Shown: positions 42,314 to 63,146, counted from the first letter of the stretch. The stretch is 64,000 nucleotides of DNA from an uncultured Acidobacteriota bacterium (GCA_963822445.1 CAWGHO010000001.1:352001-416000), one strand, 5' to 3'. Notes: generated from the letters alone by a model not told the origin. A program made the numbers and translations.

Positions 42314-42933
42314 CAGCCCACCTTGGCCTCGCCCGATCTCGCCTTCATCCGCCGCAGCTCTTCCTGTTCCTGCTGCTGCACGGAGCGAAGCAACGCCTCG
42401 AGATCGATGTCCCCCGGCTTGGGCTGCTGTTGTCCCTGATTTCCGGGCGCCTGTTGCTGCTGCTGCCGTTCGTTCTGCTTGTCCGGGCTCTGGCTGTCTT
42501 TCCCACTCGCACCACTTTGTTGCGCCCGCTGGCGTATCAACGCAATCTCGAGATTGCGCTTCGCCGCCCCGTCGTTCGGCCGCAGCTTCAGCGCCTCGGT
42601 GTAATCGCGCACGGCGTGATCGAACGCTTTCGCCGCTAGGGCGCTGTTGCCGCGATTGAAGAACGCATCCGCGCGCAGCACCGGATCCTTCAGCGCCTCG
42701 GATAGCGTCGTCGAGCCACGTTCGCGATCGCCGGCCGCGATCTGGGCGGTGCCGAGGTTGAAGGCACCGCGTGCCGAGGGTTTGAGCGTTTGTGCCTCTG
42801 AATATGCCGCCACCGCGTCCTCGTACTTCGATCCGGCGTAGGCCTTTTCACCGCGCGTTGCCGCGGCGTGGGAGTTCGTCTCGCGGAGAAACGGCGCGAC
42901 GGAGATGGCGAGAATCGCGAGCAGAGTTTTCAT
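42310..42933 (-). CDS. BatC-like TPR protein
   Basis: AFNLGTA, AFFNRGNS, AKRNLEIA, Q-rich linker, terminal W. Confidence 0.82.
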   Translation of the reverse strand: MKTLLAILAISVAPFLRETNSHAAATRGEKAYAGSKYEDAVAAYSEAQTLKPSARGAFNLGTAQIAAGDRERGSTTLSEALKDPVLRADAFFNRGNSALAAKAFDHAVRDYTEALKLRPNDGAAKRNLEIALIRQRAQQSGASGKDSQSPDKQNERQQQQQAPGNQGQQQPKPGDIDLEALLRSVQQQEQEELRRMKARSGEAKVGW

Positions 42934-43880: not shown

Positions 43881-44884
43881 GCCGGCACCTTCAGCCAGAG
43901 CGTTTCGCCCGCGAACAACGCCAGTAAGAGCAGTGACAGGCCGGCCGCGAGCGGCCAGACGTACAGCTCATCGATCTGCTCGCGTTTCGGCGCAGTCAGG
44001 CGCGTCTTCTCCAGCGTGTCGATGCGTTGCAGCACCGCGCTGAGCGCACGCGCGTCGGTGGCGCGGAAAAAGTCGCCGCCGCTGGTCCGCGCGATGGCGC
44101 TCAACGTTTTCTCATCGAGCTCTCCGCGGATGTGCGTGTAGACCGTTTCCACCGCGCCGGTGAACGGATTCTGCCGTCGAACGGGAAGCGGAACCGGACC
44201 TTCGCTGCCGACGCCGATCGTGTAGACCTTGATGCCGCTGCGCGCAGCGAGCTCCGCGGCGACCAGCGGCTCGATGGAGCCGGAGTTGTTGACGCCATCG
44301 GTGACCAAGATGATCACCCGGCTGCGCGTTTTCGACGTCCGCAGGCGATTGACCGCCGTCGCGAGCGCGTGACCGATGGCCGTCCCATTTCCGTGCTCGC
44401 CAATCTCCGCCCGATCGAGAATCGCCTCGGCGATCCGCCGGTCGTATGTGATCGGCACGCGCGTCGCCGCGCGGCTGCCGAAGGTGACGATGCCGATGCG
44501 GTCATCGGTGCGGCGGCGGATGAATTCCGCGATCAGTTCCTTGGCCACGGTGAAGCGATTGCGCGGGCGGAAGTCTTCAGCGGCCATCGATCCCGAGGCG
44601 TCGAGGGCGACGACGATGTCGATGCCGAATCGGTCGCTGGCGGCGACCCGCACCACGCGCTGCGGCCTCGCCAGCGCGACGATCACGAGCAGCAACGCCA
44701 GCATCTCCAGCACGAACGGCAGGAGCGCCGTTCGCACGCGAGCCCCGCGCGCCGGCGCGACGAGCGAAAGCGAGGAAAAGCCGAAGGCGCCGGTGCGCGC
44801 GCGCAGATCGCGCCAGAGCATGACGGTGCGGGCGATCACGAGAATCGCGAGGGCGAAGAAGAGTGGATGGGCGAAGCGGGTCAT
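43877..44884 (-). CDS. BatA-like VWA domain protein
   Basis: ALARPQ, DASGSMAAEDF, GTAIG, VTDGVNNSG. Confidence 0.9.
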   Translation of the reverse strand: MTRFAHPLFFALAILVIARTVMLWRDLRARTGAFGFSSLSLVAPARGARVRTALLPFVLEMLALLLVIVALARPQRVVRVAASDRFGIDIVVALDASGSMAAEDFRPRNRFTVAKELIAEFIRRRTDDRIGIVTFGSRAATRVPITYDRRIAEAILDRAEIGEHGNGTAIGHALATAVNRLRTSKTRSRVIILVTDGVNNSGSIEPLVAAELAARSGIKVYTIGVGSEGPVPLPVRRQNPFTGAVETVYTHIRGELDEKTLSAIARTSGGDFFRATDARALSAVLQRIDTLEKTRLTAPKREQIDELYVWPLAAGLSLLLLALFAGETLWLKVPA

Positions 44885-45576
44885 GACGCGAGCCTCAATG
44901 CCCGATCCGCCACCTCATCGAAATCCTCCGGCTCCGCGCCGGTGAGCGAGAACTTCTCCAGATCGCCCTGCCGCAAGATCGCGCGAACGATCCGCTCTTC
45001 CTCGCGCAATCGCGCCACGAGCTCCGTCGTCGTCAGATCGCTTCCGAGTTGCGGCCTCGTTTCCGCGAGGTAGGCGCGCGTCGCATCAGCGAGCGCCGCC
45101 CAGCGCTCCGGCTCGCGTTTCGCGGCGATCACCGCGCGGCGGAAGCGCTCATCGACAGGCATCGGCGGCGCGAGGGGCTCCTCCCTGCGTTTGCGCGAGA
45201 ACCACCCCGCCGCGAACCACGCGGCGATCGCGGATAAAGCCGCGACACCGATGGCGATGAACGGCGCGCGCGGATAGGGAACGCGTTGCGGCGGCCGCAG
45301 CGGCGCGGGCTTGAGATCGTCGTCCGGCTTCAGCACCGATTTCATCGGCACGACCAGATTCTGAAAGCGGACGTTGCCCATCGTCCCGCTCAGAGCGAAC
45401 GGTATCGGCAGGAACGAGCGGATCACCACCCGCGCGCCCTGCTGTTCGACGAGCTCGTATTCGCTCGACGCGTCGAGCACGACCGCCGCGGGAAACTGAA
45501 TGACGATGCGATCCCCCACCGTCGGCCGCGCGGGCTGGAACGTGGCGCTGACGACGGCAAGGATGACCAGGATCAT
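44881..45576 (-). CDS. Bat-operon membrane protein (DUF4381-like)
   Basis: Operon position, single TM, LTTTEL and DLEKF motifs. Confidence 0.7.
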   Translation of the reverse strand: MILVILAVVSATFQPARPTVGDRIVIQFPAAVVLDASSEYELVEQQGARVVIRSFLPIPFALSGTMGNVRFQNLVVPMKSVLKPDDDLKPAPLRPPQRVPYPRAPFIAIGVAALSAIAAWFAAGWFSRKRREEPLAPPMPVDERFRRAVIAAKREPERWAALADATRAYLAETRPQLGSDLTTTELVARLREEERIVRAILRQGDLEKFSLTGAEPEDFDEVADRALRLAS

Positions 45577-46478
45577 GCGGGGCGGCGATACCGGAACGAG
45601 CGCTCGCGGAAGAAGCGCAGCAGCTCCCGGTCGTAAGGAACAACGGTCGATACGGGCAGATGATCGATCGCCGCGGAGCGGAACCTTCGCACGAGCTGCT
45701 CGCGGCGGATCGCGGCCCGTTTCGCGACGTCGGCGCGTTTGAGATCGATCAGCCGCGCTTCGCCCGATTCGAGGTCGACCACGCGCATCAGACCGCGGTC
45801 TGGAAAGCGCTCCTCCCGCGGATCGATGACGGGAATGGCCACCACGTCGTGCTTGCGATTGAGCCGATTCAGCGGCCGCTCGAAGCGGCTGTCCAGAAAG
45901 TCGGAGATCACCAGGACAACGGCGCGCTTCACCGCGACGCGCTCCAGAAAGCGCATCGCATTCTCGAGATCCGCCTCGCCGCCGGCCTGCCGCATCGCCG
46001 CGTCGACCGCCGCCCGCACGATGACCTGCGCGTGCGCCCGACCGCGGCGCGGCGGGATGAACGTGCGCACGCCCTCATCGAAGAGCAGCAAACCGGTGCG
46101 ATCGGAATTCTCGACCGCGGCAAAGGCGAAGATGGCGGCCAGCTCCGCGGCGATGTCGCTCTTCCGCCAGTCGACCGATCCGAAGCCCATCGATCCCGAG
46201 ACATCGACGGCGATGAGCACGGTCAGATCGCGCTCTTCGATGAACTCCTTCACATGCGGCACGCCGCTCCGCGCGGTGACGTTCCAGTCGATCGTGCGGA
46301 TGTCGTCGCCGGGCATGTACTCGCGCACCTGCGAGAACTCGATGCCTCGCCCATGAAACGCGGAGTGATAATCGCCCGCGAACCCCGCGCGAATCAGCCG
46401 CGCGCTCATGAACTCGAGATCGCGGACGCGCCGGATCACGGGCGTGCGGAGGTCGGGGGATTTGCGTTTGAACATCAC
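45573..46478 (-). CDS. DUF58 domain protein
   Basis: GRGIEFSQVREYMPGDDIRTIDWNVTAR, DVSGSM, ISDF. Confidence 0.92.
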   Translation of the reverse strand: MMFKRKSPDLRTPVIRRVRDLEFMSARLIRAGFAGDYHSAFHGRGIEFSQVREYMPGDDIRTIDWNVTARSGVPHVKEFIEERDLTVLIAVDVSGSMGFGSVDWRKSDIAAELAAIFAFAAVENSDRTGLLLFDEGVRTFIPPRRGRAHAQVIVRAAVDAAMRQAGGEADLENAMRFLERVAVKRAVVLVISDFLDSRFERPLNRLNRKHDVVAIPVIDPREERFPDRGLMRVVDLESGEARLIDLKRADVAKRAAIRREQLVRRFRSAAIDHLPVSTVVPYDRELLRFFRERSFRYRRPA

Positions 46479-47449
46479 GGGACGGGAACCGCGCCGAGAA
46501 CCTGATCGATCACCCGATCCGCCCCCACCCCCTCCGCCGCCGCCTCGTAACTCAACACCAGCCGGTGCCGCAGCACGTCATGGGCGATGGCCTTCACATC
46601 CTCGGGGACGACATACGGACGGCCTTCGATGAAGGCGTGCGCTTTCGCAACGTGCGCCAGGGCCAGCGTCGCGCGCGGAGACGCACCGTACTGAATGTGA
46701 TTCGCGAGCGAGGGCAAGCGAAAGTCCGCCGGCTTCCGCGTCGCGGTGACGATCTGCACGATGTAGCGGCTGATGCGCTCGTCGGTGTGCACGCGCGAGG
46801 CGAGCTCGGACACTTCCCTGATCTCGCCCAGCGTGAGCACCGGCCTGATGTCGACGCCGGCGGCGGTCGCGTCGAGATACAGCGACAACATCCGCAGCTC
46901 TTCCTCCGCGGCCGGGTAGTCGACCTTCAGCTTCATCACGAACCGGTCGACCTGCGCCTCGGGCAGCGCGTACGTGCCTTCATGCTCGATCGGGTTCTGC
47001 GTGGCGATGACCATGAACGGATCGGGCAGCAGGTACGACTGATCGCCGATCGTGACCTGACGCTCCTGCATCGCCTCGAGCAGCGCGCTCTGCACCTTCG
47101 CCGGTGCGCGGTTGATCTCATCCGCGAGGACGAGGTTGGCGAAGATCGGTCCGAGGCGGGGGTTGAAGGTTCGGTTCTCGGGGTTGAAGATCTGCGTGCC
47201 GGTGATGTCCGCGGGCAGCAGGTCGGGCGTGAACTGAATCCGTTTGAACGTCGCGGCGATCGCCGCGGCGAGCGTTTTCACGAGCAGAGTTTTAGCGAGG
47301 CCGGGCAGCCCCTCGATCAGCACGTGTCCGCGGATGAGGATGGCGATGACGAGGCGGTTCACCACCGCGTCCTGGCCGATGACGGCCTTCGCCACTTCTG
47401 CCCGGAGCCGCGCGATCGTGTCGTGGGCTTTTTCGGTGGCCTGTTCCAT
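46475..47449 (-). CDS. MoxR family AAA+ ATPase
   Basis: GLPGLAKT, RIQFTPDLLPADITG, DEINRAPAKVQSALLE, YGASPR. Confidence 0.96.
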   Translation of the reverse strand: MEQATEKAHDTIARLRAEVAKAVIGQDAVVNRLVIAILIRGHVLIEGLPGLAKTLLVKTLAAAIAATFKRIQFTPDLLPADITGTQIFNPENRTFNPRLGPIFANLVLADEINRAPAKVQSALLEAMQERQVTIGDQSYLLPDPFMVIATQNPIEHEGTYALPEAQVDRFVMKLKVDYPAAEEELRMLSLYLDATAAGVDIRPVLTLGEIREVSELASRVHTDERISRYIVQIVTATRKPADFRLPSLANHIQYGASPRATLALAHVAKAHAFIEGRPYVVPEDVKAIAHDVLRHRLVLSYEAAAEGVGADRVIDQVLGAVPVP

Positions 47450-50868: not shown

Positions 50869-51744
50869 ATGCTCGACGCGTCCGCCACCGTCGACCGCAC
50901 GCGGCCGTTCATCTGCGACACGCTCACGCCGCTGTACTACACGGCGTCCTGGGCTGAGCTCGAAGCGCAGGAGCGTCTGACCTACAACCAGCTCAACGGG
51001 ATGTACTGGAACGAGCTGATCGCCGCGTTCGAGAGGGAGATGGCGATCGCCGTGCTGAACGCGGCGGGTAAGCGCGGCGACCTGCCCGCGGCAATCCACG
51101 AGCGGCTCCGCGGTTTCGCGAATGACGAGATCGAACACGCGCGGGCGTTCGCGCGACTCAATCAGCTGAGCGACCCGCGCCGTTACGCGAACGGGGACCG
51201 CTCACTGCTGCGCCTTCCCCCGGGTGCCGGATTGCTCGTGCCGCTGCTCGCGGCGTCGTCTGCCGTCAGCGCGCTGGTGTGGCTGATGTTGCTGATCGAG
51301 GAACGCTCGATCGCCGTCACCGAGATCGCGGCACGCAATCCGGACCTCGATCCCGCGTATGCGACTGTGTATGCCGCGCACGCGGAAGACGAGCGGCGGC
51401 ACGTGGCCGTCGACGTGGAGCTGCTGGCGCTACTGCACGAGCGTCGCGGAGCAACCGTCCGCTCGCTGACCGCGACCGTCTTTCGCTCGCTCGTGCAAAG
51501 GTTCCTGGTCGGCCCGGGTCCCGCCGCGATGCGCATCCTCGATGCGCTGATCGCCAGCCATCCCCGCCTCGCACCACTGCGTCCTCGATTGCGCCGCGAG
51601 TTACGCGCGCTGACCAGCGACCGCGGCTATCACCGGATGATGTACTCGCGCGAGAAGGTGCCGATCACCTTCGGCCTCTTCGATCGCCTTCCCGAGATGC
51701 GCCGCATGCAATCGGTCCTCCTCGGCTACGAGGCCACGGCATGA
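50869..51744 (+). CDS. Ferritin-like diiron oxygenase (AurF-like)
   Basis: TPLYYT N-terminus; spaced ligands FE, DEIEH, IEER, EDERRH. Confidence 0.72.
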   Translation: MLDASATVDRTRPFICDTLTPLYYTASWAELEAQERLTYNQLNGMYWNELIAAFEREMAIAVLNAAGKRGDLPAAIHERLRGFANDEIEHARAFARLNQLSDPRRYANGDRSLLRLPPGAGLLVPLLAASSAVSALVWLMLLIEERSIAVTEIAARNPDLDPAYATVYAAHAEDERRHVAVDVELLALLHERRGATVRSLTATVFRSLVQRFLVGPGPAAMRILDALIASHPRLAPLRPRLRRELRALTSDRGYHRMMYSREKVPITFGLFDRLPEMRRMQSVLLGYEATA

Positions 51745-52655
51745 CCCGCCATCGAATCCCAGGTGTCGCCAACGCGCTCATCGCCGTCGTCCAAGTGGCC
51801 GTGGTCGCCGCTCTTCTGCAAGCATCCTCGGGCGCGCGCGGCTGGCGGCTGGCGCTTTTCGCCGCGGGCTTCGCCCTCGTGATGAACTCGGTCTACTCGA
51901 TCATTCACGAGGCCGAGCACGGCATTCTCTTTTCGCGGCGATCGCTCAATGACGCCGCCGGCGTGAGCATGGCGTTGCTCTTTCCCGCGCCGTTTCACCT
52001 GATCCGGCAGGGACACATCGGTCACCACCAGCGCAATCGCTCGGACGACGAGGCCTTCGATTTCTATTTCGAGGGGGAACATCCGCTGTGGAAGCGGATG
52101 CAGTTCTACGGAATCCTCACCGGCTTCTACTGGCTGGTGGTGGTGATCTCGAACCTAGCCGTTCTGCTCGTGCCGCGGCTGTTCGACCGGACCCGTTTCG
52201 AGTTCGATCGCCCGTCCGCGGCGTTCATGGACGCGCTCAATCCCGCGTATTGGCGATGGATTCGCGTCGAGGCAGTCGCGGCGATCGCGATCCACGCCGG
52301 CGCGATCTGGTTTCTCGGCGACCCTCTCGCATATGCGGTGTTGTACGCAGCTTGGGGCGTGTCGTGGTCGGCGATGCAGTACGTGCATCACTTCGGCACC
52401 GAGCGCGACGTCCTCGACGGTGCCCGCAATCTCCGCCTCCTCGGCCCCATCGACGCGCTCTGGCTCAATCACAACTGGCATCTCACCCATCACCGCCATC
52501 CCACCGTTCCCTGGCCTCACTTGCCGAAGGTTGCCGCTGAGGAACAGCAGGGGGAGCGGGGATTCCTGCCGGTGGCGTACTTCAGAATGTGGCGCGGCCC
52601 CCGATTCACCGACGTGCGAGTGAGGAACCGCTATGCAGGACGCATCGTCAATTGA
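51741..52655 (+). CDS. Membrane fatty-acid desaturase family protein
   Basis: His boxes HEAEH, HIGHH, HNWHLTHH plus QYVHH; TM helices; ATGA coupling. Confidence 0.88.
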   Translation: MTRHRIPGVANALIAVVQVAVVAALLQASSGARGWRLALFAAGFALVMNSVYSIIHEAEHGILFSRRSLNDAAGVSMALLFPAPFHLIRQGHIGHHQRNRSDDEAFDFYFEGEHPLWKRMQFYGILTGFYWLVVVISNLAVLLVPRLFDRTRFEFDRPSAAFMDALNPAYWRWIRVEAVAAIAIHAGAIWFLGDPLAYAVLYAAWGVSWSAMQYVHHFGTERDVLDGARNLRLLGPIDALWLNHNWHLTHHRHPTVPWPHLPKVAAEEQQGERGFLPVAYFRMWRGPRFTDVRVRNRYAGRIVN

Positions 52656-53328
52656 GCCGGTTCCGGTGATCGCGCTGCCGGTGTCGCGCCGGCTGGCGAT
52701 GCTGGTGATGGGCTATGTCTCACTGCTGCATCTCCTCGGATGCGTTGCGCTCCTTTTCGTGCCGCAGACGCCGGCCGTGCGCATCGGAGCATTCCTCGCC
52801 GCGCTCTACCTGCTTCCGCCGCTGGTCGCGCGGATCACGCTCGCGGTCGCGCCGCTCGAGCCGCGCGTGCACGGCATTCACGAGCGCGGATTTCTGGTCT
52901 GGTGGTGGACGCAGCAGTGGCAGACGCTCTTCAACCGCATTCCGCAACTCGAGGAGCTGCTGCGGCTCGTTCCCTCGCTCTACAGCGCCTGGCTGCGGCT
53001 CTGGGGATCGCGCGTGGGAAAGCTCGTGTACTGGGGGCCCGGCGTCACGATCCTCGACCGCCCGCTGATGATCATCGGCGACCAGGCCATGTTCGGCGCG
53101 GGCGTGCGCATGATCGCCCACATCGTCAATCGCACGGCCGACGGCCGCGTCGACGTGACCATTGCACCGGTGACCATCGGCTCGACCGCGATCGTCGGCG
53201 CGTACTCGCTCCTCGGACCGGGCGTGATCATCGGCGAGGGCGAGTCGACGCCCGCGGCGCTCCCGATGTCGCCGCATTCGGAGTGGCGCGGCGGACGGCG
53301 CATCGCCCGGAGACGCAATGCGCTCTGA
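52633..53328 (+). CDS. Membrane-anchored left-handed beta-helix acyltransferase-like protein
   Basis: Two N-terminal TMs, WLRLWGSRVG, hexapeptide repeats VTIGSTAIVGAYSLLGPGVIIG. Confidence 0.75.
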   Translation: MQDASSIEPVPVIALPVSRRLAMLVMGYVSLLHLLGCVALLFVPQTPAVRIGAFLAALYLLPPLVARITLAVAPLEPRVHGIHERGFLVWWWTQQWQTLFNRIPQLEELLRLVPSLYSAWLRLWGSRVGKLVYWGPGVTILDRPLMIIGDQAMFGAGVRMIAHIVNRTADGRVDVTIAPVTIGSTAIVGAYSLLGPGVIIGEGESTPAALPMSPHSEWRGGRRIARRRNAL

Positions 53329-53953
53329 GCTCGCGGCGCGGCTGCGCAGCGAGTGGCGGTACAAGCTTCTGCTCTCGATCGCGTTGCCGCTGTATTTCTG
53401 CGCGCTGTACTTCGCGCTGCAGCGGGTCGTGATCTTCACGCCGCGCGTGCTGTCGCTGACGGCGCTCGATCGCGCGGTGCCGTTCGACATCCGCTGGACG
53501 GCGGTTTATCAGTCGCTCTACCTCTTTCTGCCGATGCCCTGGCTCGCGGCGCGGCGCGAAGAGCTCCATCGCTACACGCGAGGCTTCTTCGCCTTCACCC
53601 TGATCAGCTTCGCCGCTTTCTACCTGGTGCCTGTCGCCGGCCCACGTCCGGTGAGCAGCGACAGCAACGTGCTCTATCAGTTGCTGATCACCTACGACCG
53701 CAATCTCAACGCCTTCCCCTCCCTCCACGCCGCGCTGGCCGTCTACACCCTCTTCCTCGGTGCACGGCTGCTGTCCCGTGCGCGAACGATGATCCTCGCC
53801 GCGGGCGGCGTCTGGTGCATGCTGATCCTCTATGCGACGCTCGCCACCAAACAGCACTACGCCGTTGACGTCGCGGCCGGAATCGCGCTCGCCGTCGCCG
53901 CCGACGCATTCGCCTGGGGATACACTCCGCTCACACAAGCAGAGGAGGTTTGA
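53318..53953 (+). CDS. PAP2 superfamily membrane protein (Aur1/Ipt1-like)
   Basis: NAFPSLH and TLATKQHYAVD catalytic motifs; about 6 TMs. Confidence 0.82.
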   Translation: MRSELAARLRSEWRYKLLLSIALPLYFCALYFALQRVVIFTPRVLSLTALDRAVPFDIRWTAVYQSLYLFLPMPWLAARREELHRYTRGFFAFTLISFAAFYLVPVAGPRPVSSDSNVLYQLLITYDRNLNAFPSLHAALAVYTLFLGARLLSRARTMILAAGGVWCMLILYATLATKQHYAVDVAAGIALAVAADAFAWGYTPLTQAEEV

Positions 53954-53954
53954 G

Positions 53955-54581
53955 ATGAGACAGATCCACGGATCCCGGATCGCGCTCGTTCTCCTGGTTC
54001 TTTTCGCGTTCCCGCTGATGGCCAGTGAAGAGGCGGATCACGAGGCGCTGCGGCAACTGCGCGCTCTGTACGAGAAGGCCGTCAACGAGGACCAGCTCGA
54101 CCTCCTCCGCCCGCACGTGGCCACGCCGCTGTATGGCGTGATGATCACCAGCAAGCGCGTATCGAGCGTCGACGACATGAAGCAGTACTGGGCGGCGATG
54201 AAGAAGCTGATGGGTCCGGGCAGTACGTATCAGGTCAAGGTCGAGCCCGAGCGGAGCGTGTTCATGGGCGACTTCGCGCTTGCCCGCGGCACGACCTCCG
54301 ATGTCGTCACCACCGGCAACGGCAAGACCTATCGCTTCGGCACGAACTGGACCGCCGTCCTCCGCCGTGACAACGGCGTCTGGAAGCTCGTGCAGGTGCA
54401 GGGCTCGATGGATCCGGTGAACAACGAGTTCGTGCGCACGTTCATGCGCGACGCAATCGTGAAATCGGCCGCCGCGGCGGGCATCGTCGGCCTGCTCATC
54501 GGTGTCTTCGCCGGATACCTCTTCGCAAGAAGGGGAGCGGGCGTCCCGCCCGCGTCGGTCGGGCGTCCCGCCCGATCGTAG
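53955..54581 (+). CDS. NTF2/SnoaL-like protein with signal peptide and C-terminal TM anchor
   Basis: GGAGG RBS; LRALYEKAVN...GDFALARG...WTAVLRRDNGVWKL; hydrophobic C-terminus. Confidence 0.75.
   Translation: MRQIHGSRIALVLLVLFAFPLMASEEADHEALRQLRALYEKAVNEDQLDLLRPHVATPLYGVMITSKRVSSVDDMKQYWAAMKKLMGPGSTYQVKVEPERSVFMGDFALARGTTSDVVTTGNGKTYRFGTNWTAVLRRDNGVWKLVQVQGSMDPVNNEFVRTFMRDAIVKSAAAAGIVGLLIGVFAGYLFARRGAGVPPASVGRPARS
54533..54577. repeat. Tandem REP-like hairpins (GGGCGTCCCGCCC x2)
   Basis: gcgggcgtcccgcccgc gtcgg tcgggcgtcccgcccga at a convergent gene junction. Confidence 0.75.
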
Positions 54582-54593: not shown

Positions 54594-55619
54594 TCAGAAC
54601 CGCAGCGTAACCACCGACGTCGACTCCTCCGTGGCCCGCGACGCCACGGCATCGCGCCACAGGCGAAGAATGCGGGGGCCGAGGAGGTCCGTTTCGGCGA
54701 AGGTGTAGCGGGGGGCGTCGAACCTTCGCAGATTCGCGGAATGCTCGGCGAGGATCTCCACGTCCTGGCGCAGGATGCGGCGCGACAGCGGCTCGAAGTA
54801 GAGCCTCACCAACGGCGCGATGGAGCCGTAGCGAAACGTGACCACCGTGTACACATCGGTCTCGTGCGCGGAGACCGGCGTGCACTGCGAGGTGATGATG
54901 AAGTGCCGCTCGCTGCTGAACGAATAATCGACGCGGCTGGTGGTGGGCATCACGAAGCGATCCGTGTGGGTGAGCTTTCCCGCCCTGGGAAAAAGCAGGC
55001 GCGCGACGACACTTCGCCGTTCCGGCTCTTCATCAAACTCCGCGACCGCGCCGTCGCGCTCCGTTCTCACCGTTGCCGTGGCCACGCGTGTCGCGCGCGT
55101 GCGGAAGAGTCCTCCGTGAACGTAGACCGTGTGCGGGACGTCGAGAAAATTCTCGAGACAGGCAAACGCGCTGGCCTCGAAGCGCGTGGTCATGCGGAAC
55201 GTCGTCCATCGGGGTTCATCGACGTTGGGAAAAACGAAAGGCTGCACCGCCGGCTCCCCTTCGCCCATGTAAATCCAGATGAAGCCTTGTTGTTCGCGAG
55301 CAGGAAACGACGGCACTTTCGCCTGAGGTAGGTCCTCACGCACGAGCGAAGGTGCCGCGGTGCACGTGCCGCGGCCGTCGAAGGTCCAGCCGTGGTACGG
55401 GCACTCGATGCCGTTCGCGGTCGTGCGGCCGGCGGAGAGGCGCATGTTGCGGTGCGCACAGCGATCGAGCAGCGCGGACGCAACGCCGTTTCCGTCGCGG
55501 AACAACACGATGGGCTGGCCGAGGATCGTGCGGCGGATGGGTTTGTGGCGAAGGGTTTGCGCGGTTGCCGCGATGTACCAATACCGAGTCAGACTGAGTG
55601 CCAGCTCCGATTCGGTCAT
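54594..55619 (-). CDS. Rieske non-heme iron oxygenase (VanA-like)
   Basis: CAH...CPYHGW Rieske motif; ENFLDVPHTVYVH mononuclear iron motif; QD near the C-terminus. Confidence 0.92.
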   Translation of the reverse strand: MTESELALSLTRYWYIAATAQTLRHKPIRRTILGQPIVLFRDGNGVASALLDRCAHRNMRLSAGRTTANGIECPYHGWTFDGRGTCTAAPSLVREDLPQAKVPSFPAREQQGFIWIYMGEGEPAVQPFVFPNVDEPRWTTFRMTTRFEASAFACLENFLDVPHTVYVHGGLFRTRATRVATATVRTERDGAVAEFDEEPERRSVVARLLFPRAGKLTHTDRFVMPTTSRVDYSFSSERHFIITSQCTPVSAHETDVYTVVTFRYGSIAPLVRLYFEPLSRRILRQDVEILAEHSANLRRFDAPRYTFAETDLLGPRILRLWRDAVASRATEESTSVVTLRF

Positions 55620-55643
55620 CGACGTTACTGTACGATACCGGAC
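55620..55643. promoter_or_regulatory. Overlapping back-to-back -10 elements in a 24-bp divergent gap
   Basis: TACGAT on + at 55631-55636 and TACAGT on - at 55627-55632, each 7 nt from its ATG. Confidence 0.55.
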
Positions 55644-56249
55644 ATGCTCCCCGTGCGGCCGTTCCTTGCCGCGGCGTCAGGTCTGGCGCTGACGGCAGCG
55701 ATCTTCTTCTGGCGGCAGAATTTCGGAGGGCAGATCGGCGGGGAGATGTCCCTCGCCAAGATCCTCTGGCTCCACTACACCATCCTGGCCTGGTTCGTCC
55801 TGCCGGCGTTTCTGTGCCGTTCGCCGCTGCTGCCGCGCCCCTGGCGGCGCGTCTTCGCGGCCCATCTGATCAACTTCAGCGCGCGCGCGGTGATCGAGCT
55901 GTTCCTGCTGTACGTGACGGTCAGCTGGAGCCCGCTCTACGGCATCGTCCACGACCTTTTCTCGATCGCCCTCATCGCCGTGCTCGCGCGCGACGCGGCG
56001 GTTACCAGCGAACATGCTGTATTGGCGCGGCGGTTCTCGTGGACGCTGCGCGTGACGCTGGTCTGCGAGATCGTTTTCGCGGCGATGTTCTTCGTCGCCC
56101 AGGCCGGACAACGCGATCTCTACTTCGCCAGCGACGATCCCCGATTCCGCCTGATCAACGCGCTGACGACCATCGTCGACCTCGCCGTTTACACAGATCT
56201 GTTCCTGCTGCTGCGCCGCGCCCTGATCCGGGAGCCCCAGCGTGTCTGA
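55644..56249 (+). CDS. Hypothetical integral membrane protein
   Basis: About 6 hydrophobic helices; QNFGGQIGGEMSLAK and WSPLYGIVHD segments; overlaps the next gene. Confidence 0.7.
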   Translation: MLPVRPFLAAASGLALTAAIFFWRQNFGGQIGGEMSLAKILWLHYTILAWFVLPAFLCRSPLLPRPWRRVFAAHLINFSARAVIELFLLYVTVSWSPLYGIVHDLFSIALIAVLARDAAVTSEHAVLARRFSWTLRVTLVCEIVFAAMFFVAQAGQRDLYFASDDPRFRLINALTTIVDLAVYTDLFLLLRRALIREPQRV

Positions 56250-56982
56250 GGAAACGCTCACCAGCGCGGTGATCCCTGCATCGCGCGTCGATCGGGATGC
56301 CCTCTTCACGATCTTCGAGGCGAATTACGACCGCGCCGATCGCGCGCGATTCGAAGAGGACCTCGACGGCAAGGACGCGGTGATCGTGCTGCGGCGCTCC
56401 GATGGCTCGATCGCCGGATTCTCGACGCAGGCCGTCTTCGAAGTCCTGCACGAGAACCGCCGCGTACGCGTGCTCTTCTCCGGCGACACGATCATCGATC
56501 CGCGCAACTGGGGCACGCAGGAGCTCGTGCGGGCGTGGTGCCGTTTCGCCGGAACGGTCAAAGGCGAAACACCCGATCTGCCGCTGTACTGGCTGCTCAT
56601 TTCGAAGGGCCACCGGACGTACCTGTATCTCCCCTTCTTTTTCCACCGCTTCTTCCCTTCGTGCGAGCACGTGCCGCCGGCCTTCGAGCAGTCACTCATG
56701 CACCGGCTCGGAACGAAGCGCTTCGCCGATCGTTATGACGCGCGGACCGGCTTGATCGATGCCGATGCACCGCTCGATCGCCTCCGTCCGGAGATCGACT
56801 CCGCGCCGCAGCGCGCGCACAACCGCCACGTCGCGTTTTTTCTCGAGCGCAACCCGCGCTACGCGGACGGCGTGGAGCTGCTGTGCCTCACGGAGATCGA
56901 TCCGTCGAACATGCGCTCGTTCGCCCGGCGTGAAGCGGAGCGCGGGATGGCCGAGGTCGTGGAGCTGGCGGGGGTGCGGTGA
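56242..56982 (+). CDS. Hypothetical protein with probable GNAT-like fold
   Basis: IAGFST, LFSGDTIIDPRNWG, YWLLISKGHRTY; fold assignment is inference. Confidence 0.65.
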   Translation: MSEETLTSAVIPASRVDRDALFTIFEANYDRADRARFEEDLDGKDAVIVLRRSDGSIAGFSTQAVFEVLHENRRVRVLFSGDTIIDPRNWGTQELVRAWCRFAGTVKGETPDLPLYWLLISKGHRTYLYLPFFFHRFFPSCEHVPPAFEQSLMHRLGTKRFADRYDARTGLIDADAPLDRLRPEIDSAPQRAHNRHVAFFLERNPRYADGVELLCLTEIDPSNMRSFARREAERGMAEVVELAGVR

Positions 56983-58454
56983 GAACGGCCGTTGAGCGAT
57001 GGCTCGCGACCGGCGAGCAGGGCGCGGCGCGTTTCTCCGCTGCGGTTCACCATCCGCGCGTTGCGCAGGAGCAGATTCTGCTCGAGACGCTACGCGCGAA
57101 TGCGAACAGCGAATACGGTCGGCGGTTTGGATTTGGCGCGATTCGCTCTGTCGCCGAGTACCAGCGCCACGTTCCGATCGTCACGTACGACGACATCGAA
57201 GACGACGTGATGCGGAACGTGCTCACCAGTGAGCCCGCGGTCATGTTCGAGAAGACTTCCGGCTCGACATCGGCGGCGAAGTACATCCCCTTCACCGAGT
57301 CGCTGCGAAGACAGTTTCTGAACGGCGTGTCGGCGTGGATGCGCGATTTGTACGGCGCGCACCCGGAATTGAAGCAGGGCCGCGCCTACTGGTCACTCTC
57401 CCCGCTCGCCGCCGATCGCGAGATGACCAGCGGCGGATTGAAGGTTGGATTCGAAGACGATCGCGACTACTTCGCTGGCGAGGCCCGGGAGGCACTGGGT
57501 GAGATCCTCGTCCGGCCGCGGCTCCGTGATCAGTACGGAACCCTGCGAGCGCTTGCCGGGGAAGAGTCGCTCGCGTTCATCTCCATCTGGAATCCGACAT
57601 TCCTCACGGCGATGCTGGCGCGGCTCGAGGAGTGGAGCGAGCGGATCGTCGCGGAGACCGCGAACCCCCGTCTGCATCGACTGCTCGCTCGCGACGGACG
57701 GCTCATTCCGCACCACGTCTGGCCCAATCTGCGGGTGATCAGCTGTTGGACCCACGCCGCCGCCGCACTCGCCGTTCCAAGGCTCGCGGCGATCTTTCCA
57801 AACGTCGAGCTGCAGCCGAAAGGGTTGCTTGCAACGGAAGGTGTCGTCTCGATTCCCATCACCGCCGCCGGCGGCGCGGTACTGGCGATCACCTCTCATT
57901 TCCTCGAGTTCCTCGACGAGCGCGGCGACACCCATCTCGCCGATGAGTTGCGCGAGGGCCACGAATACCGCGTCCTCCTCACAACCGCCGGCGGCCTGTA
58001 TCGCTACGACCTCGGCGACATCATCTGCGTAACCGGCCTCTTCGCATCGACGCCGATCGTCGAGTTCGTCGGCCGCGCGGGCGACGTGAGCGATCTCTGC
58101 GGCGAGAAACTGTCGGAAGCGTTCGTCGGTGCCGCGCTGGCACGGGAGCGGATCGATGCGGCATTGCTCTTCCTCGCGCCCCGCGAGGGCAATCCGCCGC
58201 GCTACGCGCTGTTCGCCGAGACCAATGCGCCGATCGACGCGGACCGGATCGACACGGCGTTGCGCGCGAACCCGCACTATCGCTTCTGCCGCGATGCGGG
58301 ACAGCTCGCGCCCATCGAAGTCGTCCGGCTGCGGCAAGGTGCGGCGGAAACGTATCTGCGCCTCCGCGCGGGAAGCGGCAGAACAGGCGACGTGAAACCG
58401 CGCTCGCTCGAACGGAACGCCGACTGGCTGACGGCGCTGGAGGCCGCGTCGTGA
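56979..58454 (+). CDS. GH3 family acyl-adenylating enzyme
   Basis: TSGSTSAAKYIP, LLATEG, GGLYRYDLGD, DLCGEKLSE. Confidence 0.9.
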   Translation: MRTAVERWLATGEQGAARFSAAVHHPRVAQEQILLETLRANANSEYGRRFGFGAIRSVAEYQRHVPIVTYDDIEDDVMRNVLTSEPAVMFEKTSGSTSAAKYIPFTESLRRQFLNGVSAWMRDLYGAHPELKQGRAYWSLSPLAADREMTSGGLKVGFEDDRDYFAGEAREALGEILVRPRLRDQYGTLRALAGEESLAFISIWNPTFLTAMLARLEEWSERIVAETANPRLHRLLARDGRLIPHHVWPNLRVISCWTHAAAALAVPRLAAIFPNVELQPKGLLATEGVVSIPITAAGGAVLAITSHFLEFLDERGDTHLADELREGHEYRVLLTTAGGLYRYDLGDIICVTGLFASTPIVEFVGRAGDVSDLCGEKLSEAFVGAALARERIDAALLFLAPREGNPPRYALFAETNAPIDADRIDTALRANPHYRFCRDAGQLAPIEVVRLRQGAAETYLRLRAGSGRTGDVKPRSLERNADWLTALEAAS

Positions 58455-59530
58455 CGCGTTACGTCGTCGAGCTCGCGCGAAACGAGGACGACGCCGCCCT
58501 GCGCGGCCTGCTCGCGCGCAACTCGATGGCCGGACCGATCGAGCTGGCCTTTCTGCGCGAGCCCGGATACTTCCTCGCGTCCCCCGTTCAGGCCCCGCGA
58601 CACCAGATCATCGTCGCGCGCGACGGCAAGGAAGTCGTCGGCGCTGCATTCCGCGGCATCCGCAAGACCTGGCTCAATGGCCAGGTTCGCGACGCCGGCT
58701 ACCTCGGCGATCTCCGCCTCGACGTAGCCCACCGCGGCGGCTCGCTGGTCGCCCGCGGCTATCGCTTTCTGCGCGAGTTGCACGCTGACCGCGGCGCGTC
58801 GCTGTACCTGACTCTCATCGCCGGCGCGAATGAAATCGCGCTGAAGACGATCGCCGCAGGCCGCGCCGGCCTGCCGTCGTACAAGCCACTGGGCCGGATC
58901 TTCACCCCAGCGGTGCGGCTGAGTGGATGGTCGAAGAAACCGGCGCGAATCAAGATCGTGCGCGGCAGTGAAGTCAGCCGAGGCGAGCTCGCGGCGTGCC
59001 TTCAACGGAATCTCGCCCGCCGCCAGTTCGCGCCGTTCCTCGATCTCGAGACGCGCTTTCCCGGTCTGACCCTCGACGATTTCGCGGTCGCCGTGCGCGA
59101 TGGGAAAGTGATCGGCGCGGTCGCGGCGTGGGATCAGAACGCATTCCGGCAGACGCGTGTCGTTCGCTACCGCGGAACGGTGCGGGCGGGACGGCCGCTG
59201 TACAACCTCGTGGCGCCGCTGCTCGGCACGCCGCGCTATCCGAAGCCGGGCGAAACGCTGCGATTCTTCTACGCGTCCTTCGTCGCCATCGATGACGACG
59301 ATCCGGAAGTCTTTCGCGCTTTGCTGGCGCGTCTCGCAGCCGACCGCGCCGGGCGTTACCACTATTTCGTGGTCGGACTGCACGAGCGCGATCCGCTGCT
59401 GCCGGTCGTGAATCAGTTGCCGAGAACGCCATTCACCGCGCATGCGTTCGCCGTCCATTTCGAGGACGGCCTGGAGGATTTCGAATCGCTCGACGGACGC
59501 GTGCCGTACGTCGAGCCGGCCATGCTATGA
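58451..59530 (+). CDS. GNAT-like protein (probable tandem GNAT fold)
   Basis: FLREPGYF, GYLGDLRLDVAHRGG, AAWDQNAFRQ. Confidence 0.7.
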   Translation: MTRYVVELARNEDDAALRGLLARNSMAGPIELAFLREPGYFLASPVQAPRHQIIVARDGKEVVGAAFRGIRKTWLNGQVRDAGYLGDLRLDVAHRGGSLVARGYRFLRELHADRGASLYLTLIAGANEIALKTIAAGRAGLPSYKPLGRIFTPAVRLSGWSKKPARIKIVRGSEVSRGELAACLQRNLARRQFAPFLDLETRFPGLTLDDFAVAVRDGKVIGAVAAWDQNAFRQTRVVRYRGTVRAGRPLYNLVAPLLGTPRYPKPGETLRFFYASFVAIDDDDPEVFRALLARLAADRAGRYHYFVVGLHERDPLLPVVNQLPRTPFTAHAFAVHFEDGLEDFESLDGRVPYVEPAML

Positions 59531-62256
59531 GCACGCTCACCGCCGACACACCGCTTTCCACACCGCAGGTAACCGCGGCCGCGAGACGTCTCGACGCGCG
59601 GATTCCGTTCGCGATCCTGCTGACGCTCTACGCCGTCGCGGGCGTGACCGTTCTGCGCTTCAACCGCACGCCGCTGCAAATGCTCATCACCGTCTCCGCG
59701 ACCTGTGCACTGGACATGTTCTTCGCGCGCGTCATCCGCCGCGAGAAGCTCGTCCCGCTCAGCGCCTACATCAGCGGCCTCTCGCTCGCGCTGCTCCTCA
59801 ACTACGCGCACGACAGCTGGATTCTGCTTCTTCCGGTCTTCCTGACCATCGCCTCCAAGTACGTCCTCACGTTCGAAGGGCGCCATGTCTTCAACCCGTC
59901 GATGTTCGGAGTCGCGGTCTCGCTGCTGATCGGCGGAGACCTCATCACCACCGCGCCCGCGTATCAGTGGGGCGGCGGCGCGGCCGGCACGTGGGCGATG
60001 TCCGCATTCCTGGCCGCCGCCGCGCTCTCGCTTTTCGTCTTCCGCGTCGGACGCGCGCCGCTGATCGTCTCCTTCCTCGGCTTCTACGCCATCCAGATTC
60101 TGCTGCGCGCCTACTGGATGCGCTGGTACCTGCCGCCGGAGTCGCTGATCCTCGGCACGCTCACCAGCGCACCGTTCTTCCTCTTCGTCTTCTACATGAT
60201 CACCGACCCCAAGACTTCGCCGGCCAGGCCGCGCGATCAGGTCCTGCTCGCGTTCGGGCTCACCGTCGTCGATCTTCTGTTTCACACGCGCGGCAGCCTC
60301 TACACCTTCTTCTACGCCGCGCTGGTCGTCGCATCCGCGCGTTTCGTCTTCCTTCACCTCCGCCGCAGACGATTCGCATTCAACGCCCGCGCATGGACCG
60401 TCGTCGCCGCAACCGGCGCGGTGATGATCGCGACGTACGCGATAACCGTGCAGCCCTTCGCCGCACCGCCGCCGCTCACATTCGACTTGGTGAAGCTCGA
60501 TCCACTGCAGACCGGCGTGGCGCCGAAACTCGACGGCTCGATCATCAACGAGGCCGATCCGCGCGTGCGTCACATCGCCAAGTGGCTCCTCTCCGCGGGT
60601 GACGCGGCAGCCGCGGCGGACTTCGACAACGACGGCCGGCTGGACCTCTTTCTCTGCGGTCCCTTCAAGACCGTCGACGACCGGGCTATCCTCTATCGCG
60701 GCACCGGGGCGATGACGTTCGAGCGCGTCCGCGTACCGGCGCTCGAGAAAATCGTCGCCGACCCGCGCCGCTTCGGCATCATCTCCAGCGGCTCGTTCGT
60801 CGATCTCGACAACGACGGCGATCGCGACCTCTTCCTCACCGTCGGTTACGGCCGCAGCATCCTTCTGCGCAACGACCTTACCGAGCGCGGCGTGGCGGAG
60901 TTCGCCGAGGTTGCGGATGCGGGGACGGGCGATTACTCGATCAGCATCGCCGCGAACTTCCTCGACTTCGACAACGACGGAAAGCTCGACGTCTTCGTCG
61001 CCAACGCTCTCGATCCGATGCTCCGCAAATACGACCCGCCGCGGCCGCTGAGCATCTTCGCGCTCGAGCAACCGGAGCATCCCGGCGACCGCCGCATGCT
61101 GCCGTTCATGCACAGCAGCTGGGACAACGCGCGAAACGGCGGCCCTAACGTCCTCTACCGCAACCAGGGCGCCAACCGCTTCACGCGCGTCGATCCGGGC
61201 ATGCCCGAAACGCACTGGAGCCTGTCGGTGGCGACGGCGGACTTCAACGGCGACGCGCGCACCGATCTCTACGTCGCCAACGACTTCGGTCCCGACGACT
61301 TCTATCTGAATGAAGGGAAGGGGCGCTTTCGCAAGATCGAAGGGCGCATCGCCGGCGAGATCAGTCACGACACGTACAAAGGCATGAACGCGTCGCAGGG
61401 CGACGTCGACCGCAATGGCCATCCCGACGTGTATGTGTCGAATGTGCACATGCCGCTGCAGGCCGAAGGAAGCCTGCTGTGGATGACCTACCCGGGGCGC
61501 GATGGCGTGCCGGAGCTGCGCGACGAGGCCAATCAACGCGGCGCGCTCAACGAGCATCGCTTCGGCTGGGGCGGGGCGATGGGCGATCTCGACAACGACG
61601 GCTGGCTCGACATCGTCCAGGCCAACGGCATGATCGACGACGCGTTCGACAGGAAATTCGAGCAGTGCCGGGATTACTGGTACGTCAACGAGAAGCTGAT
61701 GCGCTCCGGCCCGGAGATTCACACCTACGCGGACAAGTGGGGCGATCTGCGCGGCTACTGCATCAACGGGCGCGAGTCGAATCGCGTGTACCTCAGCCGT
61801 GGCGATCGCGAGCGGCTGCAGTTCGCCGACGTCGCCCCGCGCCTCGGCTGGAAGGACGAGCCTCCATCGCGCGGCGTCCTCCTCGCCGACTTCGACGACG
61901 ACGGCGATCTCGACCTGGGCATGACCCACATCACCGCGCCGATCACGCTGTACCGCAACACGCGCAATGAGCGGGGCGGGCGGTGGATCGGCTTCGACGT
62001 CCGCGGAAACGGAACGACGTGCAATCGCGACGCGGCCGGCACGCGAGTAACCATCTCCTATCCGGAAAACGGACGTACCGTGACCCAGATGCGCGAGATC
62101 TCGATCGTCAACGCGTTCGCCGCCCAGGGCGATCGCCGCGCGCTCTTCGGCCTCGGCGACTACAAAGGCGACGTCGACGTGACCATCTCCTGGTGCGGCC
62201 GCAGCGAGACCCGGATGCGCGTCAACACGAATCGCTATCACGTGATCCAACAATGA
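59527..62256 (+). CDS. Fusion: RnfD/UnbU-like membrane domain + FG-GAP/CRTAC1 propeller + ASPIC/UnbV domain
   Basis: IASKYVL...RHVFNPSMFG and FYMITDPKTSP; about 7 DxDNDGxxD repeats; NRDAAGTRV...QMREI...LFGLG. Confidence 0.88.
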   Translation: MSTLTADTPLSTPQVTAAARRLDARIPFAILLTLYAVAGVTVLRFNRTPLQMLITVSATCALDMFFARVIRREKLVPLSAYISGLSLALLLNYAHDSWILLLPVFLTIASKYVLTFEGRHVFNPSMFGVAVSLLIGGDLITTAPAYQWGGGAAGTWAMSAFLAAAALSLFVFRVGRAPLIVSFLGFYAIQILLRAYWMRWYLPPESLILGTLTSAPFFLFVFYMITDPKTSPARPRDQVLLAFGLTVVDLLFHTRGSLYTFFYAALVVASARFVFLHLRRRRFAFNARAWTVVAATGAVMIATYAITVQPFAAPPPLTFDLVKLDPLQTGVAPKLDGSIINEADPRVRHIAKWLLSAGDAAAAADFDNDGRLDLFLCGPFKTVDDRAILYRGTGAMTFERVRVPALEKIVADPRRFGIISSGSFVDLDNDGDRDLFLTVGYGRSILLRNDLTERGVAEFAEVADAGTGDYSISIAANFLDFDNDGKLDVFVANALDPMLRKYDPPRPLSIFALEQPEHPGDRRMLPFMHSSWDNARNGGPNVLYRNQGANRFTRVDPGMPETHWSLSVATADFNGDARTDLYVANDFGPDDFYLNEGKGRFRKIEGRIAGEISHDTYKGMNASQGDVDRNGHPDVYVSNVHMPLQAEGSLLWMTYPGRDGVPELRDEANQRGALNEHRFGWGGAMGDLDNDGWLDIVQANGMIDDAFDRKFEQCRDYWYVNEKLMRSGPEIHTYADKWGDLRGYCINGRESNRVYLSRGDRERLQFADVAPRLGWKDEPPSRGVLLADFDDDGDLDLGMTHITAPITLYRNTRNERGGRWIGFDVRGNGTTCNRDAAGTRVTISYPENGRTVTQMREISIVNAFAAQGDRRALFGLGDYKGDVDVTISWCGRSETRMRVNTNRYHVIQQ

Positions 62257-63146
62257 CAACGCCGTTCAACAACCCGGACCTGCACGTCGAGAGCTGGTAC
62301 GTGGCCATGCCGTCGCGCGAGCTCGCACGGGGGAAAGCGAAAACGCTCGACGTTCTGAACCGCAAGATCGTCTTCTTCCGCGGTGAAGACGGGACTGTCC
62401 GCGCGCTCGACGCACGCTGCCCGCACCTAGGCGCGGACCTCGGCATCGGCACCGTGGAGGGCAACCGCATCCGCTGCGCGTTTCACGGCTGGACGTTCGA
62501 TGGCGATGGGCATTGCGCGAATGCGCGCGCCGTCGCGTACCCGGTCGAGGAGCGCCACGGCGCGATCTGGTTCTTCAACGGCGCACGCGCCTCATTCGAG
62601 GTTCCGGCGTTCGCCTCGAACGACCGCGTGGTGATGCTGAAGCCGCAAGTCATCCACTGCCATCCGCATCTGATCGCCTGCAACGGCCTCGACCTCGATC
62701 ACTTCGCGACGTTGCACGAAATCGCCTTTCTCGACGAGCCTCGCTTCGAACAGCCCGATGCGTTTCGCACGCGGATGCGCATGCGGTTGCGTTTCACCGG
62801 CAACGGCCTGATCGACCGCATGCTCCGTTCGCTGGGCGGCAACGACGTCACGGTCGCGTTCACGACCTGGGGCGGGAACATCGCCACGATCGACGGCTCG
62901 CTCGGCCGCATCCCCATCCGCGTGCTCTTCTCCCACCGCCCCATCCTCGGCCGCAACAGTCTTTCGCGCACATTCGTGTTCGTGCCGACACGCTTCATGT
63001 TGCCGGTGGTGCTGATGGTTCTCGCGCGAATCGTCGTCGGCGACCGTGAGCTGCTCGACCGCCTCGATTTCCGCGAGAACCTCACCAGCCGGGACTGGGC
63101 ATTGGCCGCGTTCATCGAGCAGGTGAACGCGATGCCTGTGCACTGA
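62253..63146 (+). CDS. Second Rieske non-heme iron oxygenase
   Basis: CPHLGADL...CAFHGW; NGLDLDHFATLH; ATGA coupling. Confidence 0.88.
   Translation: MTTPFNNPDLHVESWYVAMPSRELARGKAKTLDVLNRKIVFFRGEDGTVRALDARCPHLGADLGIGTVEGNRIRCAFHGWTFDGDGHCANARAVAYPVEERHGAIWFFNGARASFEVPAFASNDRVVMLKPQVIHCHPHLIACNGLDLDHFATLHEIAFLDEPRFEQPDAFRTRMRMRLRFTGNGLIDRMLRSLGGNDVTVAFTTWGGNIATIDGSLGRIPIRVLFSHRPILGRNSLSRTFVFVPTRFMLPVVLMVLARIVVGDRELLDRLDFRENLTSRDWALAAFIEQVNAMPVH

Follow-up and report, generated by a model that had tools for sequence, protein, structure and literature searches.

A single-chain protein joining UnbU-like and UnbV-like halves outside an enediyne cassette, and its possible role in a GH3-centred acyl pathway

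We analysed a 64,000-nucleotide stretch of DNA from an uncultured Acidobacteriota bacterium (the window; GCA_963822445.1, CAWGHO010000001.1:352001-416000), in which the gene at 59527-62256 (+) encodes a single chain that joins a membrane domain resembling UnbU (hereafter U) to a propeller resembling UnbV (hereafter V). UnbU, which we take to be identical with E5 and T3 (DynT3-type), and UnbV, presumably identical with E4 and U14 (DynU14-type), are known from enediyne biosynthesis, where E3, E4 and E5 have formed part of the conserved cassette since it was first described. The three genes are termed 'of unknown function' in the available text of a 2023 paper (PMC9992847), and the cassette that bears E3-E5 is called an 'essential warhead gene cassette' in an excerpt of another (PMC11350584). 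A literature search with subscription journals mostly outside its reach found nothing on a U::V fusion or on E4/E5 function. The fused gene has the following parts, all on the plus strand.

59527..62256, +: UnbU-like::UnbV-like single-chain protein (open reading frame (ORF) and translation, Pfam, full-length homologues, AlphaFold2)
59527..60363, +: RnfD/NqrB-fold membrane core, UnbU/E5-like, residues 1-279, ten helices (PF03116, Foldseek, tree)
60391..60453, +: eleventh transmembrane (TM) helix, residues 289-309 (hydropathy and loop charges; helix 287-308 in the model)
60559..62016, +: seven-bladed FG-GAP beta-propeller (Pfam FG-GAP_3 and FG-GAP, invariant columns, Foldseek)
62032..62238, +: UnbV_ASPIC C-terminal domain, residues 836-904 (Pfam PF07593)

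Translation gave an uninterrupted frame of 909 amino acids (aa) with 0 internal stops, in which the motifs quoted by the earlier note lie at S110-K-Y ... H120-V-F-N-P-S125 and M224-I-T-D-P-K-T-S-P232. Pfam detected NQR2_RnfD_RnfE (PF03116; 8.1e-12, 45.5 bits, cut-off 27.7), FG-GAP_3 (7.3e-36, 6 stretches), FG-GAP (7.5e-15) and, at residues 836-904, UnbV_ASPIC (PF07593; 8.7e-09, 35.6 bits, cut-off 23.4), the last of which has the fused gene as its sole match in the bacterium's own genome (6.0 Mb, 94.7% complete). An AlphaFold2 model of the whole chain, based on 111 homologues, reached a mean predicted local distance difference test score (pLDDT) of 89.4 and a predicted template-modelling score (pTM) of 0.89. 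The frame, the Pfam matches and the model thus confirm what the earlier note had described, a multi-TM domain, an FG-GAP propeller and an ASPIC/UnbV end in one chain.

When folded alone (pLDDT 87.6), the N-terminal domain matched RnfD best (8rbq_D, E 9.1e-06, TMq 0.61), with NqrB next (7xk3_B). A positively charged loop, RRRRFAFNAR (279-288), directly precedes helix 11 in the eleven-helix assignment from hydropathy and loop charges, and this helix occupies the place of the signal/anchor sequence found N-terminally in split V proteins and in E4. Judged by the positive-inside rule alone, the propeller should lie outside the cytoplasm. It bears seven DxDxDG-type calcium-loop motifs together with motifs that are invariant in, and specific to, the family (DRRM..H..W 521-532, KGMN 618-621, S638/H641/E647 and Y717-R742). 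The best Foldseek match of the whole model was murine CRTAC1 (9etn_A, E 3.7e-21, TMt 0.66), also the top Protein Data Bank (PDB) match by sequence (8.4e-11), and integrin alpha propellers and aldos-2-ulose dehydratase followed.

Since NCBIfam holds no UnbU family model, we sought real cassettes as references. The first 401-genome sample, from the actinobacterial phylum, yielded one such locus (L124), with DUF1702 at the E3 position, an FG-GAP plus UnbV_ASPIC protein of 640 aa, an RnfD-like protein of 346 aa, a ketosynthase (KS)-acyltransferase (AT)-ketoreductase (KR)-dehydratase (DH) polyketide synthase of 1942 aa and a 4HBT_2 thioesterase. A second 401-genome sample, drawn from the class of the L124 genome, contained E5 orthologues in 8 genomes, and homologues of PksE, E3 and the thioesterase were present in 5 of the 6 further loci fetched. 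One locus of these samples (L145; G730:C34:1-20000) combines E4 and E5 orthologues with a single in-frame TAG inside the E5 match; the 20 kb fetched show no PksE, and the cassette may be decaying or rearranged.

Hidden Markov models (HMMs) of the fused family recovered cassette E5 at 74-94 bits and cassette E4 at 109-151 bits, the latter matching the C-domain HMM over almost its whole length. The invariant K, H, N-P, M, T-D-P and T recur in 7 cassette-type E5 proteins (6 of them beside PksE), in 19 split U proteins and in the window domain, and in alignments of both the U and the V sides the invariant motifs are common to cassette, split and fused proteins.

Trees were then compared for the two halves, with support given by the Shimodaira-Hasegawa-like approximate likelihood ratio test (SH-aLRT) and 95 taken as the mark. 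The N-tree (IQ-TREE, quick mode) used 65 of 81 rows, with every second fused row plus the window and without L111 and L114, which are short; the C-trees used every second fused row (56 of 69 rows), and the second of them also left out the long branches L053_other and L068_other. In the N-tree, respiratory RnfD was separated from all UnbU-like rows at 100; the fused clade (98) and the cassette E5 clade (100) joined, together with two actinobacterial groups, at 93. The C-trees returned a fused clade (100) and a cassette E4 clade (100) as sisters at 81-82, and at 87-88 they separated fused, E4 and U-adjacent split propellers from generic propellers in the same loci. Support for the deeper joins stays under 95, yet the N- and C-trees are concordant, and in both the fused clade stands separate from the cassette clades and is nested within neither.

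Both halves therefore group with E5/UnbU, E4/UnbV and their split homologues, and not with generic CRTAC1 proteins or respiratory RnfD, the grouping that the earlier note had named as a refutation. This supports, at the level of sequence, an N-domain of the UnbU/E5 type as opposed to respiratory RnfD, and a C-domain that is a propeller of the UnbV/E4 type. The earlier note had also suggested that the fusion might inform the role of the pair in enediyne biosynthesis. The homology on which that suggestion was built is upheld by the trees and the HMMs, but because the fused proteins form a sister clade of E4/E5 and do not fall inside it, function can be carried over to enediyne chemistry only by inference.

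The surrounding cassette is absent here, in agreement with the earlier note, which had listed PksE, E3 and E10 as missing. KS domains in the bacterium's own genome occur solely in frames of up to 713 aa, the longest being a single KS protein, and no PksE was found. A search for DUF1702/E3 (PF08012) found no match in the same genome but was silent in control genomes as well, making it weak evidence of absence; and no PksE, E3 or cassette thioesterase gene was seen among the window ORFs scanned (39960-63986).

We next consider how U and V are arranged elsewhere. A U-type profile recovered 80 genome loci, 14 fused and 66 split. A strict distance rule places V immediately before U, ending at or overlapping its start, in 57 of the 66 split loci, and allowing for an over-long U ORF call adds three more (L010, L023 and L055; 60/66); of the others, one has V 1.5 kb downstream and five lack V in the stretch examined. 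In 37 loci, U is followed by another V-like gene that lies farther off. A second type of U::V fusion, of 1003-1072 aa, occurs in the actinobacterial loci L120, L121 and L122 (genomes G199, G226 and G252; Pfam was run on L120). Its membrane domain falls inside an actinobacterial U clade, whereas the propeller half is found among generic FG-GAP/UnbV proteins, a tree placement that suggests, by itself, a separate fusion event.

To this we add a predicted contact. The L124 pair (E4 residues 45-640 plus E5, with a 27-row alignment each) was submitted to ESMFold2-based complex prediction and gave ipSAE interface scores of 0.86, 0.84 and 0.86 over three runs, while each of the three controls scored 0.00. 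Among solved complexes, 116 of 157 attained this ipSAE mark, as did 2 of 215 mismatched pairs; the counts are approximate, our own alignments having been used. The predicted interface comprises 146 contacts on which the runs agree to at least 91%, with a partner pLDDT of at least 77, and no similar solved complex was seen in sequence and fold searches of the PDB. Carried onto the fused protein by alignment, the contact segments are 44-50, 92-96, 133-159, 202-217 and 252-260 on the U side and 530-534, 643-648, 666-676 and 713-742 on the V side. Many of the residues that 111 fused sequences share without variation fall inside these segments, including R47, Y146-Q147-W148, H253, W532, E647-G648, A668, N675, Y717, Y719, D736, W738 and D740. 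The prediction gives computational support to the view that U and V touch through conserved loops. The Rosetta-stone argument of the earlier note, that the two proteins act as one unit, draws support from gene order, from the occurrence of fusions in two lineages placed apart in the trees, from the parallel trees themselves and from the docking prediction.

Split pairs are found in several other settings. In Paenibacillus and Virgibacillus they lie beside discrete KS, KR and FabA-type genes and a methyltransferase, with no PksE. By Pfam, Paenibacillus L017 has KS, KR, methyltransferase, DUF1702 (E3-like) and a second U, and Virgibacillus L036 has the methyltransferase and a FabA-type dehydratase, DUF1702 and a second U not being seen; phmmer found KS and DUF1702 homologues in Paenibacillus L028 and L085. 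These four clusters look like a type II-style polyene or fatty-acyl system that uses the E3/E4/E5 trio. In Acidobacteriota, Bacteroidota and Latescibacterota, split pairs stand beside TPR/FG-GAP giants, a TonB-type barrel or TauE.

In the set P0395, P0383, P0350, P0328, P0320 and P0327, U-type domains are also fused to BNR, RHS or TPR repeats or to an FG-GAP propeller plus an AurF-like di-iron domain, or a 230-aa N-terminal extension precedes U::V. The AurF-like domain was seen once, at the C-terminus of P0328.

A further observation concerns paralogous propellers. In the window's phylum, about 22 genomes hold about 25 matching frames that are CRTAC1-like and contain a single in-frame TGA. In L151 (G973:C1:3611500-3616000) and L153 (G937:C5:918800-923300) this TGA lies between conserved coding stretches (...NGFISGK.M.DT / TGA / S.FWRHVVA...), while in the frame chosen for L152 and L154 the gene was not recovered. 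We regard it as a candidate selenocysteine codon. In a MAFFT alignment the TGA falls one column from C714, a Cys common in the fused family, and SelA is present in the three genomes tested as well as in the window's genome (G000). A hairpin resembling a selenocysteine insertion sequence (SECIS) after the TGA was no more stable than shuffles (z -1.1 and 0.0).

The fused architecture recurs widely. Of the 120 best database matches, 118 span at least 95% of the query at 51-85% identity, and all 120, which come from many phyla and several sources, have FG-GAP plus UnbV_ASPIC. The membrane domain alone, searched against proteins of 499-1591 aa, gave 462 matches at E<=1e-10. Members are named 'CRTAC1 family protein', 'FG-GAP-like repeat-containing protein', 'RnfD subunit' or 'enediyne biosynthesis protein E4' in their sources. 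Against 1.84 billion representatives, the U-type domain profile found 933 clusters at E<=1e-30 and 3252 at E<=1e-10; among the best 150 clusters, 26 are at least 700 aa long and most others 250-350 aa. Among 201 genomes of the window's own phylum, a tally that includes three genomes flagged unpublished, the full-length fused form occurs in the window's genome only, and the other matches are propeller-only or U-only. The fused gene is common in other phyla and the guanine-cytosine content of the window is not unusual; the module may have been acquired by horizontal transfer. A search of sequencing runs returned two soil-metagenome runs only, in which 0.09 and 0.05 of the words sampled were present; no RNA run was among the results.

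We then turned to the genes around the fusion, counting homologues of each neighbour in the 14 fused loci, several of which lie on short contigs.

58451..59530, +: GNAT-like protein, 359 aa (weak Acetyltransf_1, 0.0018); homologue in 10/14 fused loci
56979..58454, +: GH3-family adenylating amide ligase, 491 aa (Pfam GH3 N, M and C domains); 11/14 fused loci
56242..56982, +: 246-aa protein, GNAT-like by language-model features; 10/14 fused loci
55644..56249, +: small hydrophobic (membrane) protein, about 200 aa (probable start M85 of ORF 55392-56249); 7/14 fused loci
54594..55619, -: Rieske non-haem iron oxygenase, 341 aa (Pfam Rieske and VanA_C), divergent from the operon; 12/14 fused loci
62253..63146, +: second Rieske-domain protein, 297 aa (Pfam Rieske 4.2e-23); its start overlaps the fused-gene stop
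50869..54581, +: AurF-like di-iron protein, fatty-acid desaturase, hexapeptide transferase, PAP2 and SnoaL-like proteins (Pfam); local extension

The ATG of the fused gene (59527) overlaps the stop of the gene upstream (ATGA), and its own stop (62254-62256) overlaps the ATG of the next, placing it fifth among six translationally coupled genes that run from the small membrane protein through the 246-aa protein, GH3 and the 359-aa GNAT-like protein to the fusion and the Rieske protein. The annotation of the smaller partners varies in strength. PDB profiles gave the 359-aa protein only weak GNAT and N-myristoyltransferase matches (best E 0.045). The 246-aa protein had no Pfam match at E<=1, nor did 9 of its homologues, and a best PDB-profile E of 0.17; its nearest Atlas clusters are auto-named GNAT (score 0.98). 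The small hydrophobic protein had no Pfam match and reached unnamed Atlas clusters at best (0.87). No homologues of the operon neighbours were found in the 66 split loci or in the 16 actinobacterial stretches L120-L135.

The local extension is less widely kept: of the 14 fused loci, L089 alone has homologues of the desaturase, PAP2 and SnoaL-like genes, and for the AurF-like and hexapeptide genes the count is 0/14. The AurF-like ORF (50869-51744) and the desaturase ORF (51279-52655) overlap by about 465 nt, and because the desaturase domain begins only at residue 189, the true start of the desaturase is probably near 51744. Farther away, 40709-47449 (-) holds a BatA/BatD-type, aerotolerance-like operon (MoxR AAA ATPase, DUF58, VWA, TPR and BatD) that is unrelated to the fusion.

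These counts bear on the substrate. The unsaturated acyl substrate proposed by the earlier note is not supported by the conserved neighbourhood, given that the desaturase (51279-52655) has a homologue in 1/14 fused loci and the conserved partners are GH3, GNAT-like and Rieske proteins. They point to an amide-linked lipid or acyl amino acid, in which either saturation state is possible. According to the available text of one paper, the bacterial GH3 enzyme OlsH uses ATP to convert fatty acid and ornithine into N-acyl ornithine (PMC12493201).

Taken together, we infer that the fused protein may be the extracytoplasmic last station of an amide-linked acyl pathway, where U and V would together make a composite site on the membrane surface; this is the likeliest of the readings considered, and to our mind it is evenly balanced between being right and wrong. 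In it, the cytoplasmic GH3 ATP-dependent amide ligase, the two GNAT-like acyltransferases and the Rieske oxygenases would most likely assemble a lipid-like acyl compound with an amide linkage and oxidise it. The ten-helix RnfD/NqrB-fold core, which appears to lack the flavin-attachment loop, would be tethered by helix 11 to an extracytoplasmic propeller of the calcium-loop FG-GAP type with its UnbV_ASPIC end, and the two halves would make a single site on the outer face of the cytoplasmic membrane. The hydrophobic product could then be taken from the membrane via the U domain and be modified or passed on at the V propeller.

A bolder version, which we hold doubtful, is that UnbU and UnbV constitute an unrecognised two-part envelope enzyme, in which a flavin-less RnfD-type domain would deliver a hydrophobic chain, and possibly electrons, to the calcium-loop propeller, the active site being the invariant inter-domain surface on the membrane's outer face. 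If true, enediyne cassettes would be one specialised user of a machine that hundreds of lineages use, split or fused, on lipids, and the missing steps after the PksE polyene would be located at the membrane and not in the cytoplasm.

Unlikely, in our judgement, is that the protein is a redox machine, in which electrons pass by way of the RnfD/NqrB-derived domain between the propeller and either the quinone pool or a non-covalent flavin, and the propeller in turn oxidises an extracytoplasmic hydrophobic chain, for example by dehydrogenation, acetylenase-like chemistry or cross-linking. Its RnfD/NqrB ancestry and fold, the Rieske oxygenases as constant neighbours, the AurF-like domain at the C-terminus of P0328 and the position of the candidate selenocysteine TGA of the paralogous propellers, which adjoins the C714 column inside the predicted interface 713-742, all favour such a role, whereas the cofactor evidence argues the other way. 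The threonine of [ST]GA[TS] is the site of flavin attachment in RnfD and NqrB. This motif occurs in 2 of 76 UnbU-like domain stretches, in neither case in the loop after the FNPS motif, although the test is coarse, only 2 of 5 RnfD control rows showing the motif, in that loop. The stretch from FNPS to TDP measures 93-109 residues in UnbU-like rows compared with 129 in the two motif-bearing RnfD rows (about 30 shorter). Pfam and NCBIfam found no Fe-S, haem or flavin domain in the fused protein, C714 is variable (Pro or Gly in some members), and the Rieske proteins show no sign of an extracytoplasmic location.

Improbable to the same degree is a non-catalytic exporter or flippase that includes a docking platform, in which U moves the product or a powering ion and the propeller binds it or relays it to the envelope. 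Channel folds (urea transporters and AmtB) come next after RnfD and NqrB among the fold matches of the N-domain, if far more weakly (E >=0.26). K111, N123-P124, M224 and D227-P228 are invariant in all U-like rows and T226 nearly so, and K, NP, M, T and D are present at the aligned RnfD positions too. Several unrelated extracytoplasmic modules are fused to U, and TonB-type barrels stand beside split pairs. Two features speak against this role: the U-facing side of the propeller holds dozens of invariant residues at 45-87% overall identity, beyond what docking usually needs, and no ATPase or other export partner is conserved beside the fusion.

Far less probable still is a generic CRTAC1-like surface or adhesion protein on a polytopic anchor, functionally unconnected to the operon or to E4/E5. 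NCBI names members 'CRTAC1 family protein' and 'FG-GAP-like repeat-containing protein', and CRTAC1 is the best structural match; however, the C-domain groups with U-linked propellers and apart from the generic ones of the same loci, the membrane domain contains invariant polar residues, the operon partners are kept across phyla, and the start and stop codons of the fused gene overlap those of its neighbours. It is scarcely credible, finally, that assembly or gene calling created the fusion, or that the protein serves as a subunit of a respiratory Rnf/Nqr complex. The RnfD or NqrB labels given to some members by IMG and the PF03116 score above cut-off might speak for this view, which is refuted by homologues across the junction (118/120, with an architecture so widely recurrent that it is due neither to chance nor to misassembly), by a linker helix inside the confidently modelled region, by a TIGR01946 rnfD score of 23.3 bits against a cut-off of 207 (the NqrB equivalog also being far below its cut-off), by the separation of RnfD at SH-aLRT 100 and by an operon in which Pfam and NCBIfam show no Rnf/Nqr partner genes.

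Several points weigh against placing the fused protein at the end of an amide-linked acyl pathway. Support for every family member is computational throughout; the docking score expresses the confidence of a model and is not a measurement, and the interface on the fused chain was transferred by alignment from the split-pair prediction, not read from the fused model. Both the join of fused and enediyne forms (81-82) and the split between U-linked and generic propellers (87-88) fall under the 95 mark. The substrate class is drawn from neighbouring genes only, the window GH3 scores 52.5 bits with the OlsH equivalog (NF052613; cut-off 620), and the operon shows no OlsI alpha/beta-hydrolase. The fusions of U to BNR, RHS and TPR repeats fit a general anchor or platform as well as a catalytic role, and the many split V-U pairs in quite different contexts mean that the pair cannot be linked to any single substrate.

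What is already known is an unexplained E4/E5 pair; what is new is its fused form in a non-PKS context. E4 and E5 are placed in a large paired family (the 933 clusters noted above) whose U and V partners are fused in at least two separately placed lineages and are predicted to dock through their most conserved loops. For one fused clade the setting is a defined six-gene operon, present in easily handled bacteria such as Myxococcus xanthus (L045, with the fused gene, the 246-aa protein, GH3 and Rieske), so that the role of the pair could be addressed by ordinary genetics and lipid analysis, avoiding slow, low-yield enediyne producers. The locus also points to an unstudied GH3-centred lipid pathway in many soil phyla.

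Four known systems place the fused protein in perspective. The OlsH/OlsI ornithine-lipid pathway of Singulisphaera acidiphila likewise has a GH3-family ligase at the centre of a lipid-related operon, where the window operon has GNAT-like, Rieske and U::V partners in place of OlsI and the OlsG methyltransferase, neither of which was seen. With RnfD and NqrB the fused protein has in common the fold (8rbq_D, 7xk3_B) and the motif residues K...NP and M.TD, and it differs from them in being without the flavin-attachment motif and partner subunits and in having a shorter loop region. In the enediyne cassette, UnbU (E5) has SK(Y)...H..NP(S) and M(I/V)TDP.T in common with the fused protein, and UnbV (E4) the FG-GAP propeller plus UnbV_ASPIC and the motifs NGG, KGM and SNI.... 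The cassette order is V then U, whereas the fused chain runs U-V, with an additional helix where the cassette V has its signal/anchor sequence, and the fused locus has GH3, GNAT-like and Rieske partners in place of PksE, E3/DUF1702 and the cassette thioesterase. CRTAC1 (cartilage acidic protein 1, ASPIC; 9etn) also combines an FG-GAP propeller with an ASPIC/UnbV domain, at 14% identity, but is a soluble, secreted animal protein without a membrane domain. The CRTAC1 name given to members of the fused family is a description of fold, not of function, and the window propeller carries, in addition to that fold, extra invariant motifs that map to the U contact.

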